Positions 2,451 through 36,837 of a stretch of 64,000 bases of DNA are shown one piece after another (position 1 is the stretch's first letter; every line of letters starts with the position of its first letter). Under the pieces are notes generated by a model. The model was not told the DNA's origin. It saw nothing but the letters and a program-made list of their open reading frames with translations, and made no database searches. The translations under genes were made by a program, and so were the position numbers. This DNA comes from Escherichia phage vB_EcoM-RPN187: the sequence record OL770074.2; one strand, written 5' to 3'.

Positions 2451-2875
2451 TGTATCTTATCCCTGAATCTTATGAATTGGTACTCGAAAATGTCGAAGCA
2501 CTTATTCCTGAAGCACAGGGCCGAATCGATGCATTGTCTTCTGCTCTCGATATTGACGATATAAATACTATTATCGAGAACATGCTTGAAACTGAAACGG
2601 ATTTAGCTGTTGCAATGGCTTCCATTATTAATGAAGAACAGTTAAATGAGTTTATCGTTAAACATGTTTCTTCTCGTGGTGAAGTCACTCGCACTAAAGA
2701 CCGTAAAACTCGTGAACGTAACGCGTTCCAAACAACTGGTCTTTCTAAAGCAAAACGTAGACAAATCGCTCGTAAGGTCGTTAAAGCTAAAAAAGCTAAC
2801 CCTTCAGGCCAAGTTAAAGGCTTGCGTAAGCGTAAAAAAGCTCTTAAACGTCGTAAAGCATTAGGATTAAGCTAA
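2450..2875 (+). CDS. 68: prohead core protein gp68
   Basis: 141-aa ORF, basic K/R-rich C-terminus; position between 67 and 21 as in T4. Confidence 0.8.
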
Positions 2876-28662: not shown

Positions 28663-28911
28663 TTACTTCAGGGTAATAACAAAATGACGAACTGCTTTAC
28701 GTGCTGCAGAAGCCAGAGGCTTAGCATATTTCAATTCATCTTTCTGGACCAGGATATCACGAAGATCAGCTTGTGCTGGATTCAGATGTTTGAAATACTG
28801 TAAGATTTCAAGAGCTTCGGCTTCAACATCAATAGATGCACCGTAATTTTCATGGCCATTATTCCATGCATGGCGTTGCAGTTCAAGAGCGTGTTGTAAT
28901 TGTTTAATCAT
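28663..28911 (-). CDS. rIII: rIII lysis-inhibition accessory protein
   Basis: 82-aa ORF (T4 rIII 82 aa); position just upstream of gene 31. Confidence 0.8.
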   Translation of the reverse strand: MIKQLQHALELQRHAWNNGHENYGASIDVEAEALEILQYFKHLNPAQADLRDILVQKDELKYAKPLASAARKAVRHFVITLK

Positions 28912-29425: not shown

Positions 29426-29734
29426 TTACATAAGAAGCAAACGTTCTACCGGAGTGCCATCAACCGAAATTACTTTATCAAGGCGGAAAGAACGCCACTG
29501 ACCTAACTTGGTGTCGAATGCTCGAACTGATTCACGAGGTTCATAACGAACTTCTGTTGCTGGATTGTTATTTTCGTATTTGACTTCAAGTTCATCGCGC
29601 GAAGCAAACATAGTGCGTACCTCGCCGTTAGCCTTTTCAAATACAACACAATGAACGCCTACAGACAGAATAGTTTTAATACGTTCACGAAGAACCATAG
29701 TTTCTTGTTCAGTTAAAATCATATTATTCACCAC
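29426..29734 (-). CDS. hypothetical protein (T4 31.1 position)
   Basis: 102-aa ORF, start-overlaps cd stop. Confidence 0.5.
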   Translation of the reverse strand: MVNNMILTEQETMVLRERIKTILSVGVHCVVFEKANGEVRTMFASRDELEVKYENNNPATEVRYEPRESVRAFDTKLGQWRSFRLDKVISVDGTPVERLLLM

Positions 29735-30305
29735 AAAAGTTTCGGATTTGTTCCCAATTCAGAGAACGAAGATTATTACGAGAGTACTGAATTACTTCAA
29801 TACCGGCTTGTTTTAGAATGTCTGCCCAATTTTCAGGAGATCGATCGTATAATTCTGCGTATACAACCTTTTTAATACCTGACTGCGTAATAGCTTTAGT
29901 GCAATCAGGACACGGAGAAAGCGTCGTATATAACGTAGCACCTTCAATAGAATTACCTTTACGAGCTGCAAACAAAATTGCGTTCAGTTCCGCATGGATT
30001 TCGTTATTAGCAGACCATGCACTATGAGCCGCTCGATGTTCTTTAGCCAAAACAAAATTATCTGCCCGTCCAAATGCCGTAGTGCCTTCTTTATGTCCAG
30101 CAACGATGACCGGACTTGGTTTATTCTTCAACCAACCATTTTCGGATGCATGTTCGCAACAGTTAACGCCACCGGCCGGTGAACCATTATATCCAGTAGA
30201 GATAATGCGCCCATCTTTTTCAATGACGGCACCAACTTTCCATGAACAACATTTTGATTCTTGAGAAATCAAATAAGCAATTTGAAGATATGTGCTAGCT
30301 TTCAT
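29724..30305 (-). CDS. cd: dCMP deaminase
   Basis: 193-aa ORF; zinc-binding HAE (HAELNAI) and PCPDC motifs; T4 Cd 193 aa. Confidence 0.95.
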   Translation of the reverse strand: MKASTYLQIAYLISQESKCCSWKVGAVIEKDGRIISTGYNGSPAGGVNCCEHASENGWLKNKPSPVIVAGHKEGTTAFGRADNFVLAKEHRAAHSAWSANNEIHAELNAILFAARKGNSIEGATLYTTLSPCPDCTKAITQSGIKKVVYAELYDRSPENWADILKQAGIEVIQYSRNNLRSLNWEQIRNFCGE

Positions 30306-31297
30306 TATTGAACCTTATTAATATAAGTTAACAGCTCTTTAGTTTGTTCCCAACTGATGCACGCATCGGTAACGGAAACGCCATAGGACATATTATCAGA
30401 AATTTTTTGATTTCCTTCATGTAGGAATGATTCTATCATAATTCCTTTGACCAAATCATTAGCTGCTAAATTTTTACCAATACCAATTTGATTGCTATAA
30501 CACCCATCAGCGTTTGCATGGCTACAGTCAACCATTACATAATGATTCAGACCTAATGCACTTGCTTTGTTAGAAGCTTCTTGAATATCAGAAGAATGAT
30601 AGTTCGGGCCGTTGGTCCCACCACGCAATACGATATGCGTATTCTGATTACCTTCAGCTTCAACAATGCCTACAGTACCATCGACGTCCATACCCATATA
30701 CCGATGAGGCCAGGCGGCACTATACATCGCGTCTGTAGCTACTTTAATAGAACCATTGGTTGCGTTCTTGAAGCCTACGCACATCGGTAGACCTGAAGCA
30801 ATTTCACGATGTGTCTGACTTTCAGTCGTACGGGCGCCAATAGCAACCCATGAGAAAATACCAGAAAGATACTTAATTGTGAATGGGTCTAATACTTCAG
30901 TTGCTAATGGAAGTCCCATACGTAGAAGTTTACGACACAATGTTCGTGCAACTATAAGACCGTGGTTCATATCAAAACTTCCGTCAAGATATGGATCATT
31001 TACAAGACCTTTCCAACCTACGGTAGTTCGAGGCTTTTCAAAATAAACGCGCATCACTAACAGAACATTAGGAAGACGAGTTTGAAGTTCAGCCAGACGT
31101 TTGCCGTATTCAACAGCAGCAATAGGGTCATGAATTGAACAAGGACCTACAACAATAAGTTTGCGTGGGTCTTCACCGTTCATAATCGAATTAACTTGTT
31201 CGCGATGAGAAGCCACTTGTGATGCGTAAGCTTCCGACAAAGGAATAATCTCAGCCAGTTCTTTTGGAGAAATAAGTTTTCTGATGACAGGTAACAT
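30305..31297 (-). CDS. 3-deoxy-D-arabino-heptulosonate-7-phosphate (DAHP) synthase, class I AroG/AroF-like
   Basis: 330-aa ORF; AroG-like motifs LIVVGPCSIHD, KPRTTVGWKGL, GARTTESQ, DCSHAN, ESFLHEGNQ, TDACI; SD TAAGGA; start overlaps cd stop. Confidence 0.85.
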   Translation of the reverse strand: MLPVIRKLISPKELAEIIPLSEAYASQVASHREQVNSIMNGEDPRKLIVVGPCSIHDPIAAVEYGKRLAELQTRLPNVLLVMRVYFEKPRTTVGWKGLVNDPYLDGSFDMNHGLIVARTLCRKLLRMGLPLATEVLDPFTIKYLSGIFSWVAIGARTTESQTHREIASGLPMCVGFKNATNGSIKVATDAMYSAAWPHRYMGMDVDGTVGIVEAEGNQNTHIVLRGGTNGPNYHSSDIQEASNKASALGLNHYVMVDCSHANADGCYSNQIGIGKNLAANDLVKGIMIESFLHEGNQKISDNMSYGVSVTDACISWEQTKELLTYINKVQ

Positions 31298-32394: not shown

Positions 32395-33480
<1,086 letters not shown>

Positions 33481-33481
<1 letters not shown>

Positions 33482-33780
33482 TATTTTATTCCTAAGAAAA
33501 TTTCAAGAATACGAATGTTATGCTCGCGCCGGTCTTTATTAATTTCAGCAACGTTTTTATTAATTGACGTACTTCTAACGTTTGAAGAAATAAATTTAAT
33601 CATATGACTTTTGAGTTGTTGCAAATCCAACCCTTTTTCTTTAGCAGCTTTACGAAGAGCTTTACCTGCTTCATCTAGTGCCTTTGCTGCATCTTTGTCA
33701 TAATTGCCAAGTGACATTCCACGGCAGATATCAATATACTCATCAGACCGTTTGATGTAATTCTCTAGTAATGTTTTCAT
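33481..33780 (-). CDS. hypothetical protein
   Basis: 99-aa ORF, basic. Confidence 0.5.
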
Positions 33781-33808
33781 TTAGATTTCCTCAATTATCC
33801 ATAGGAGC

Positions 33809-33838
33809 ATTATACTCTGCTCCTGAGAGTTTGTAAAC
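33809..33838 (-). promoter_or_regulatory. T4 early-type promoter, -10 TATAAT inside inverted repeat
   Basis: minus GTTTAC-N18-TATAAT; IR ggagca/tgctcc flanks -10; near-identical to promoter at 61410-61439. Confidence 0.55.
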
Positions 33839-34062
33839 TATTTTACTAAAGATTCAATATACTCGTGAAGAGCTTTAGTCGCTACTGCCCACTTATTCTG
33901 ATATTCATTTTTCAGATTAGCACGAGACTGAACTAACAATCGGTCATTAGTCGGAGGCAAAGATTCTAATCGTTGAATCTGGCGCCCATAAATCATAGCC
34001 GCCATTTCAGATTCATAGATAAGCCCTTTAATGTATTCATGCTGTTCTTTAGTCATTGGCAT
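33838..34062 (-). CDS. hypothetical protein
   Basis: 74-aa ORF. Confidence 0.45.
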   Translation of the reverse strand: MPMTKEQHEYIKGLIYESEMAAMIYGRQIQRLESLPPTNDRLLVQSRANLKNEYQNKWAVATKALHEYIESLVK

Positions 34063-34343
34063 TTTTCCTCTTTTAAACCACTACGATAATAACATATCAT
34101 AGTCTTCTGGTCATGTACGTATCTTTTTACGTCGTTTAACCAGATACGAAATTCTTGAGAGTCTTCAAATGGCATTCCAACCCACGGATTACCATCAATA
34201 ACCTTTACTTGCCATTTCTGGTTATATTCAACAATAGATTCAGGCCATGGCGGATGTAAAGTTTCTTTAGGGCTTAAGGGCACATCCTGGGCACATCCGG
34301 CTAAAATGCCAATAGATAATACAACTGCAGTTAATTTAATCAT
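34053..34343 (-). CDS. predicted small lipoprotein
   Basis: 96-aa ORF; signal peptide with lipobox MIKLTAVVLSIGILAG-C. Confidence 0.5.
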   Translation of the reverse strand: MIKLTAVVLSIGILAGCAQDVPLSPKETLHPPWPESIVEYNQKWQVKVIDGNPWVGMPFEDSQEFRIWLNDVKRYVHDQKTMICYYRSGLKEEKCQ

Positions 34344-34696
34344 TCTGAGAGCTTCCTGAGGTCTTCTGCAAAGGAATCGAAGGACCTGTTGATTTGTTTT
34401 TCGACCAATCCTGGTTTACTTGCCACCACGTTCTTCTTCTTCGAATCCTTACGGAGCTTTTCATTTTCGGCCTTAAGTTGGTCAACTAAAACACGGTTCT
34501 TATAAGTCATTTCTTCGATTGACTGATATTGAACCTTGAAGTCGTCTAATACTTTAGCATTGTTTTTAGCAGTCTCTTTAACAGAAGCTAATTCATTATT
34601 CAACGAATCAACTTTGTTGTTTAAGACAACTATTGTTAGCGTAGAAACTAGAGCAAAAGCTGCTACCATAGCATAAATCGGATTTACTTTAAGCAT
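34340..34696 (-). CDS. predicted single-pass membrane protein with coiled-coil
   Basis: 118-aa ORF; N-terminal hydrophobic helix (AMVAAFALVSTLTIVVL) then charged helical region. Confidence 0.5.
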   Translation of the reverse strand: MLKVNPIYAMVAAFALVSTLTIVVLNNKVDSLNNELASVKETAKNNAKVLDDFKVQYQSIEEMTYKNRVLVDQLKAENEKLRKDSKKKNVVASKPGLVEKQINRSFDSFAEDLRKLSE

Positions 34697-35183
34697 GTTT
34701 TAATAATCTCAATGATTTCATCTCGGGATAATCCATTGATAAGAACGGTTTTCGGACCATCACACTGGATTTTGTACGATTCAAACAATACACACAACTC
34801 TTCTGCTGTATGATACGGACTTGAAATTCCGAGGCGATTGAATTTGTCGGTAAGAGGGTCGCAAATAATGTAGAATTTTATACCTGAGATATGTACGTTT
34901 GGTTGACTAATATTAATGAACACATTAGCGTCATATTTAGTCAAATTGTTTTGAAGAAATTCTACCATGGCATTAACTGCTTCCGGCATCGCTTCACGTT
35001 TCTCTTCGGTGTAACGTGTTGAATATTCCTTTTGCTTTAACTTCTTTTTAGCATTTTTCGCTAGAGTAGTACGAAGGTCCGTAAGATAACCAACTGCACG
35101 GCCTTTCTTAAAGACTCGGATTCCATCTGTAGAATCACCAAATGCTGCCACAACCATATCGTTAGTAATCAATTGCATATTCA
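34684..35183 (-). CDS. alc: Alc-like protein (host transcription termination on dC-DNA), tentative
   Basis: 166 aa from MNMQLITN (SD GAGGAG); T4 Alc is 167 aa and sits immediately downstream of rnlA. Confidence 0.5.
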
Positions 35184-35214
35184 TAATTTTCTCCTCGTGT
35201 TGTTGATAAAAGCC

Positions 35215-35244
35215 ATAGTAACACCTTCCTTGGTGTTTGTAAAC
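35215..35244 (-). promoter_or_regulatory. T4 early-type promoter
   Basis: minus GTTTAC-N18-TACTAT. Confidence 0.5.
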
Positions 35245-35246
35245 CA

Positions 35247-36380
<1,134 letters not shown>

Positions 36381-36426
36381 TCAGTTAGTTTTTTTAAATT
36401 GTACCACAATCCTTGTGGCATGTAAA

Positions 36427-36837
36427 CTACTTTTTCTTATGTTGGATATTCCAAGGCGGGTTGAACTTTTTGATAAAAAGCGGTTCTTCAAGGTCCATTG
36501 TTGCGATGGTCATTGAACCAAGTTCGTTGGTGACTGAAAGGTCAAAACATTGGCGGGCCCAGAATTCAACCTTTTTGCCTTGCATTAAGGCATCCAAAAT
36601 CATAAGTGATTTTCTTGAATCTGAAGTCTGGTCTTTTCGATTTATGGCTGTTCGATAATAGTTAATGCGTTTCTTTAAATTCTTGGTTTTACCAATATAC
36701 ACAAGCTCGTCATCTATAGCAATAGCGTATATGACATTTTTCTTATTAGGGACATCAACTGTTTTAATTGTTGCATCTTCTAATAGCTCCAATTCTGTAT
36801 ATTTAATAAAGGAATATTCGGCGGCAATATCTTTCAT
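36427..36837 (-). CDS. denA: endonuclease II (DenA)
   Basis: 136-aa ORF (T4 DenA 136 aa); GIY-YIG-like segment VIYAIAIDDELVYIGKT; position next to nrdB. Confidence 0.8.
   Translation of the reverse strand: MKDIAAEYSFIKYTELELLEDATIKTVDVPNKKNVIYAIAIDDELVYIGKTKNLKKRINYYRTAINRKDQTSDSRKSLMILDALMQGKKVEFWARQCFDLSVTNELGSMTIATMDLEEPLFIKKFNPPWNIQHKKK

Follow-up and report, generated by a model that had tools for sequence, protein, structure and literature searches.

The membrane-protein and lipoprotein gene pair between alc and pseT.1 of Escherichia phage vB_EcoM-RPN187 very probably encodes a T4-type two-component spanin

What is the role of the two small envelope proteins encoded between alc and pseT.1 in Escherichia phage vB_EcoM-RPN187? 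The question concerns a locus within a window of 64,000 nucleotides (the whole stretch of DNA that was analysed), in which a sequence-only reading had described a lipoprotein and a single-pass membrane protein encoded side by side. We found both open reading frames on the minus strand, at 34340..34696 and 34053..34343, and their products are an envelope pair, as that reading had proposed. By their sequences the two proteins are orthologues of the T4 PseT.3/PseT.2 two-component spanin, and their role is very probably to disrupt the outer membrane when lysis reaches its last stage. The parts of the pair, called i-spanin and o-spanin here, are the following.

34340..34696, minus strand: probable i-spanin gene (pseT.3 orthologue), 118 amino acids (aa), no Cys; from the list of open reading frames, PHROG and the T4 alignment
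34622..34678, minus strand: codons for the transmembrane helix predicted at the N-terminal end of the i-spanin, about residues 7-25, IYAMVAAFALVSTLTIVVL; from hydropathy and AlphaFold
34343..34621, minus strand: predicted periplasmic domain of the i-spanin, with helix alpha1 to residue 88, the linker SKPGLVE at 89-95 and helix alpha2 at 96-117
34053..34343, minus strand: probable o-spanin gene (pseT.2 orthologue), a 96-aa precursor with a predicted mature lipoprotein of 80 aa
34293..34343, minus strand: lipoprotein signal peptide of the o-spanin, lipobox L-A-G-C; from a pattern match
34293..34295, minus strand: codon of the o-spanin lipobox Cys17, a Cys conserved in all homologues examined
34092..34094, minus strand: codon of o-spanin Cys84, equivalent to T4 PseT.2 Cys87 by alignment
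34059..34061, minus strand: codon of o-spanin Cys95, equivalent to T4 PseT.2 Cys98 by alignment

When the two proteins were compared with the PHROG families, the i-spanin matched family 739 (E 1.4e-33) and the o-spanin family 812 (E 2.3e-43), both named 'Rz-like spanin' and both over the full length, and the i-spanin gave a weak match to a second Rz-like family, 214 (E 7.7e-6). These spanin families were the only significant matches in the scan, which returned two further weak matches, of unknown function. Furthermore, alignment from end to end revealed 44% identity between the i-spanin and T4 PseT.3 and 71% identity between the o-spanin and T4 PseT.2, so that both proteins lie within the published threshold for sequence membership, which is 40% identity or more over no less than 40% of the length (PMC6139136). 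In the T4 reference genome, pseT.3 (117 aa) and pseT.2 (99 aa) overlap by 4 nt and stand between alc and pseT.1/pseT, downstream of rnlA, and the T4 record annotates both as 'Rz-like spanin'. The locus order rnlA-alc-pseT.3-pseT.2-pseT.1...pseT is common to this phage, T4 and S143_2, the last of which is classified in Mosigvirus (Straboviridae, Tevenvirinae). It had been held that neither frame could be assigned to a named T4 gene; since both align end to end with PseT.3 and PseT.2 and occupy the T4 position, this was wrong, and the names are pseT.3 and pseT.2.

Over the 1.5-kb region, Escherichia phages AV112 and AV113 showed 99.1% identity to this phage, and about 100 others 95-99%. Relatives including AV112 and S143_2 label the i-spanin 'spanin Rz', and close relatives label the o-spanin 'outer membrane lipoprotein Rz1' or 'spanin, outer lipoprotein subunit'. 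The NCBIfam search returned nothing for either protein, and a PDB sequence search with both found no relative (best E 0.58-0.76). In Pfam the o-spanin had no match, and those of the i-spanin, most of them to coiled-coil families, were weak and below threshold. With no Pfam or NCBIfam model for either protein, the pair is easily mistaken for something new.

We found only one hydrophobic stretch in the 118-aa protein, at about residues 7-25, with the maximum of the 15-residue Kyte-Doolittle mean (2.58) at 11-25. Beyond it the protein is charged, with 20 K+R against 16 D+E. A single-sequence AlphaFold model (mean pLDDT 85.7) placed one helix at residues 6-88, in which the predicted transmembrane stretch is itself helical, a break at 89-95 (S-K-P-G-L-V-E) and a second helix at 96-117. 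Hydropathy, charge count and model agree with the earlier description of one N-terminal transmembrane helix followed by a charged, coiled-coil-like part. The single N-terminal transmembrane domain (TMD) and mainly alpha-helical periplasmic domain of the family are both found in this protein, the topology being predicted, and an equivalent N-terminal hydrophobic segment was present in eight of eight compared i-spanin homologues. The helix-linker-helix model also matches the published prediction for T4 PseT.3, whose ectodomain is predicted to consist of two helices with a very short linker, its o-spanin partner being predicted as beta-alpha-beta (PMC6139136).

The 96-aa protein begins with MIKLTAVVLSIGILAGC, which fits a PROSITE-style lipobox pattern at Cys17 and bears out the lipoprotein signal with a LAG-C lipobox that had been read from the sequence. 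The signal peptide, MIKLTAVVLSIGILAG, is followed across the cleavage site by C-A-Q; with Ala and not Asp at +2, the inner-membrane retention signal is absent. The outer-membrane lipoprotein signal of the family, a lipobox with an invariant Cys and no Asp at +2, is therefore found here. The protein has exactly two periplasmic Cys, C84 and C95, aligned with C87 and C98 of T4, and together with an i-spanin that has none they reproduce the Cys pattern of the T4 family. For the o-spanin, an AlphaFold model made from the single sequence had a mean pLDDT of 43.3, too poor for use of the fold.

The two frames share 4 nt (ATGA), the stop of the i-spanin frame lying over the start of the o-spanin frame, and alc shares 13 nt at its 3' end with the i-spanin frame. 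The gene adjacency of a two-component spanin is present, with the i-spanin first and the o-spanin next, both on the minus strand. We found the ATGA overlap, with the i-spanin directly upstream of the o-spanin, in 14 of the 14 loci in which both genes were found (12 IMG/VR contigs, T4 and S143_2, with frames called from ATG starts). The two coding sequences also share 4 nt in annotated records from five further Straboviridae genera, Tegunavirus, Bragavirus, Krischvirus, Jiangsuvirus and Slopekvirus, in all of which the order is kept, usually with rnlA upstream, alc being present or absent, and with pseT downstream. Likewise, all eight divergent Straboviridae pairs that were compared have an i-spanin without Cys and an o-spanin with the lipobox Cys and two C-terminal Cys; the spacing of the latter is C-x10-C in seven of the eight families and C-x7-C in KP15.

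In a tblastn search, 1319 phage records contained a relative of the lipoprotein, the lowest identity being about 26%; among the matches listed, the hosts named were Escherichia, Klebsiella, Shigella, Enterobacter, Yersinia, Aeromonas and others, and almost all genomes were of about 160-180 kb. The dN/dS ratios were calculated by the Nei-Gojobori method for comparisons with three relatives, namely a phage of 98% identity, an RB69-like contig and T4. They were 0.27-0.48 for the membrane protein with the three relatives and 0.12-0.15 for the lipoprotein with the two distant ones, the closest relative showing zero non-synonymous change in the lipoprotein, so that the ratio was at most 0.48 in every comparison for both genes. 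The shortness of both frames, and the fact that Pfam, NCBIfam and PDB gave nothing above threshold, would suit the notion that one or both are non-functional or chance frames, but the spread of relatives, the dN/dS ratios, and the conservation of key residues and gene order all argue against it. We give this notion practically no chance, and the conservation data effectively refute it.

Several homologues showed irregularities of their own. In three relatives of about 60% identity (L015-L017, at about 2501..2779) there is no ATG before the lipobox in the o-spanin frame, which reads ...HQVKLLVATVLSIGLLAGC...; a non-ATG start is needed there, presumably the GTG for the V of VKLL, and ATG-only calling had missed these o-spanins. 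In L018, a 155-kb IMG/VR contig, the o-spanin frame at 2498..2689 stops at 63 aa (...MPFEDSE) beside an intact i-spanin, which could be a sequencing error or a genuine truncation without the essential Cys pair. For the o-spanin of Escherichia virus KFS-EC (NC_055757; L021, 1009..1461) the annotation gives 150 aa, in which the lipobox Cys is residue 68 (ALSS before the C); since a start at an internal Met (MFKKAHKNF...) would give a signal peptide of normal length, the gene has probably been annotated from a start that lies too far upstream. The weakest tblastn match (25.7% identity, E 2e-4), at L024 828..1331 in Pseudomonas phage vB_PpuM-SKa-4, is part of a 167-aa 'Rz-like spanin' whose gene adjoins one for an amidase, so that it belongs to a conventional lysis cassette and not to the T4-type rnlA-pseT context. 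The T4 record itself (NC_000866) has an ambiguous codon, X ('Ile or Thr'), at residue 86 of pseT.2 (L003 6175..6177), just before Cys87; the residue before the equivalent Cys is Ile or Leu in this phage and other relatives.

The identity to T4 was unevenly distributed along both proteins. In the i-spanin it was 19% in the TMD, 30% in helix 1 and 74% in the last 42 residues; in the o-spanin it was 76% in the signal peptide, 31% in the linker after the lipid anchor and 87% in the C-terminal 53 residues. This fits the pattern expected if both C-termini form a conserved interaction and fusion module and the membrane-proximal parts act as spacers, and the variable TMD, helix 1 and linker beside conserved C-termini agree with the published C-terminal interaction and fusion module. 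Covariation between o-spanin E92 and i-spanin K117 has been reported in the T4 family (PMC6139136). At these positions this phage has G89 in the o-spanin (34077..34079) and a C-terminal E118 in the i-spanin (34343..34345), and RB69-like contigs (L005-L009) have the same G/E combination. The combination in this phage fits the published covariation. PM2 looks like an exception, with E in the o-spanin and an i-spanin ending in ...EETQ.

The 'separated' architecture of T4 PseT.3/PseT.2 reportedly goes back to work by Summer and colleagues in 2007. The T4 pair has become the paradigm of a two-component spanin of this architecture (Kongari et al. 2018, PMC6139136). Cloned pseT.3-pseT.2 restores lysis of a lambda RzamRz1am lysogen, and the C87S and C98S forms of PseT.2 are lysis-defective, so that both Cys are essential; PseT.3 has zero Cys and forms no SDS-stable dimers, and disulfide-linked PseT.2 dimers were seen only when PseT.3 was present (PMC6139136). 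According to the spanin model, complexes reach from the inner to the outer membrane through the meshwork of peptidoglycan, which keeps them inactive until the endolysin degrades the murein; they then fuse the two membranes (PMC6139136; PMC12642591). Cells without spanins end as fragile spheres bounded by the outer membrane, a defect visible when that membrane is stabilised by Mg2+ (PMC6139136). Direct demonstration of the membrane fusion step comes from lambda Rz/Rz1 only.

By analogy with this work we infer how the two proteins of this phage would behave in vivo. The 118-aa protein would insert N-in/C-out in the inner membrane through its single TMD, its helical periplasmic domain projecting from it. 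The 96-aa protein would be lipidated at Cys17, cut by signal peptidase II and then directed to the outer membrane on account of the Ala at +2. Conservation and the lambda and T4 data suggest that the conserved C-termini of the two proteins bind each other and that the complex spans the periplasm through the peptidoglycan mesh, where it would be inert as long as the murein is intact. As in T4 PseT.2, C84 and C95 would form the disulfides needed for activity, intramolecular at first and then homotypic intermolecular. Once the holin (T) has triggered and the endolysin (E) has destroyed the peptidoglycan, the complexes would diffuse, undergo a conformational change and bring about fusion of the inner membrane with the outer; the fusion would remove the last barrier and permit virion release.

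Expression of the pair does not appear to follow a late programme. The T4 late-promoter motif TATAAATA was absent from the coding strand between 29028 and 43941; with one mismatch allowed, only two variants occurred in 33700..36600, and no MotA-box-plus-minus-10 arrangement was found in that same interval. A sigma-70-like site (TTTACA-17-TACTAT with a TG extension) occupies 35243..35215, a short way upstream of position 35184, where alc really starts. The lack of the late-promoter motif on the coding strand indicates that expression of the pair is probably not late-specific, and the promoter context suggests that it is probably co-transcribed with alc from early or middle promoters. Non-late expression is unusual for lysis genes, although the T4 genes share this context and position, far from e and t. 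The distance that separates the pseT.3/pseT.2 pair and the holin and endolysin genes is noted for T4 (Fig. 8 legend, PMC6139136), and the same holds here. Early synthesis would be compatible with the spanin model, since the complex would be inert until the murein is removed.

The start of alc itself needs a correction. The mechanically called alc frame, 34684..35247 on the minus strand, is 187 aa long; its Pfam ALC and PHROG matches begin at residue 22, and relatives annotate a 501-nt coding sequence, equivalent to a start at 35184, which is preceded by GAGGAG. The sigma-70-like site at 35243..35215 sits within the spurious 5' extension of this frame.

The pair, or the lipoprotein alone, could in principle be a superinfection-exclusion or receptor-masking device like T5 Llp, Cor or T4 Imm/Sp, a function that the sequence-only reading had put forward. 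A small phage lipoprotein with a small membrane protein is the generic architecture for this, and the apparent early or middle transcription context, with no late-promoter motif nearby, would suit it. In T4, exclusion functions belong to other genes (imm, sp). In this phage, the PHROG scan gave no match of either protein to a family named superinfection exclusion, receptor blocker or Imm/Sp, the only significant profile matches being to spanin families, and PADLOC, a library for anti-phage defence, returned only one sub-significant coiled-coil match (PbeC, E 0.007), which we treated as noise. Strict pairing, coupled genes and an essential Cys pair are hallmarks of spanins, and the proteins are clear orthologues of T4 PseT.3/PseT.2, which have been shown to perform the Rz/Rz1 lysis function. 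Exclusion or masking as the function of the pair is thus highly improbable. A T4-type spanin might instead have a second, earlier role besides outer-membrane disruption, either in envelope tethering or in interference with superinfecting phage. Such a role could exist since the complex is probably in the envelope long before lysis and combines a structured, disulfide-dependent o-spanin with an early or middle context; we consider it very unlikely all the same.

The same reading had also offered lysis timing; in that role the pair would be a holin- or antiholin-like or lysis-inhibition component comparable to T4 T, RI or RIII. The proteins are lysis-related and envelope-located, and a single N-terminal TMD is seen in the T4 holin T and antiholin RI as well. 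The i-spanin, however, matches i-spanin profiles, neither PHROG nor Pfam gave a match to a family named holin or antiholin, and an rIII-like frame lies elsewhere in the window, at 28663..28911. Timing is the task of holin and antiholin, and the published model places spanins after holin and endolysin, where they do not set it (PMC6139136; PMC12642591). We see only the slightest chance that the pair acts in timing, and the reading as a T4-type spanin is the one that we retain.

Some neighbouring genes in the window deserve mention. At 30305..31297 on the minus strand we found a 330-aa class-I DAHP synthase (aroFGH TIGR00034, E 8e-128, above the curated cut-off), which would give the phage an enzyme of its own for entry into the shikimate pathway. 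The gene is directly upstream of the frame at 29724..30305, which, judged by position and a look at the sequence, is presumably cd, the gene for dCMP deaminase; at that place T4 carries nothing but the small frames cd.1 and cd.2. Between pseT.1 and pseT lie two minus-strand frames, 33290..33481 and 33481..33780, of 63 and 99 aa, which match PHROG 8683 and 2364, both of unknown function. Just upstream of them, at 33837..33809, is a near-consensus sigma-70-like promoter, TTTACA-17-TATAAT (11/12).

Collectively, these data indicate that the pair is an ordinary copy of an experimentally characterised lysis system that is already known, and one more diverged member of the T4 spanin family. Correct annotation has practical value, as many T4-like genomes (for example H4, H7 and H13-H15) still say 'hypothetical protein'.

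Comparison with known systems places the pair in the same way. T5 Llp and Cor-type exclusion proteins are small phage-encoded outer-membrane lipoproteins that act alone on the receptor, whereas the lipoprotein of this phage occurs in strict pairing with an i-spanin and has the two Cys of spanins. The unimolecular spanin gp11 of T1 shares the final lysis role, with an outer-membrane lipoprotein signal and one TMD bridging both membranes; it consists, however, of one polypeptide in place of the two proteins found here, its TMD is C-terminal, and beta-sheet makes up most of its periplasmic domain. Lambda Rz/Rz1 is a machine of the same kind, with coupled genes for an outer-membrane lipoprotein and for a type II inner-membrane protein whose periplasmic domain is helical, and it can be replaced functionally by the T4 orthologues (PMC6139136). 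The lambda genes differ in that Rz1 is embedded in Rz in the +1 frame, whereas those of this phage are sequential. Compared by description, lambda Rz1 is a 40-aa proline-rich unstructured peptide, whereas the T4-type o-spanin is of about 80 aa and predicted to be structured as beta-alpha-beta. Lambda Rz has Cys and forms covalent dimers, whereas the T4-type i-spanin has none, and lambda tolerates some loss of Cys, whereas T4 needs both o-spanin Cys (PMC6139136).

The closest likeness is to T4 PseT.3/PseT.2. The lengths are nearly the same (118 against 117 aa and 96 against 99 aa, this phage first), the position between alc and pseT.1 and the 4-nt overlap of start and stop are shared, and both systems combine a Cys-free i-spanin made of a TMD and helix-linker-helix with an o-spanin that has a lipobox and two C-terminal Cys with 10 residues between them. 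The differences are that the TMD and first helix of the i-spanin of this phage are highly diverged (19-30% identity), that its o-spanin linker is 3 residues shorter, that E92 and K117 of T4 are replaced by Gly89 and the C-terminal Glu118, and that two extra small frames separate pseT.1 from pseT, which abut in T4.
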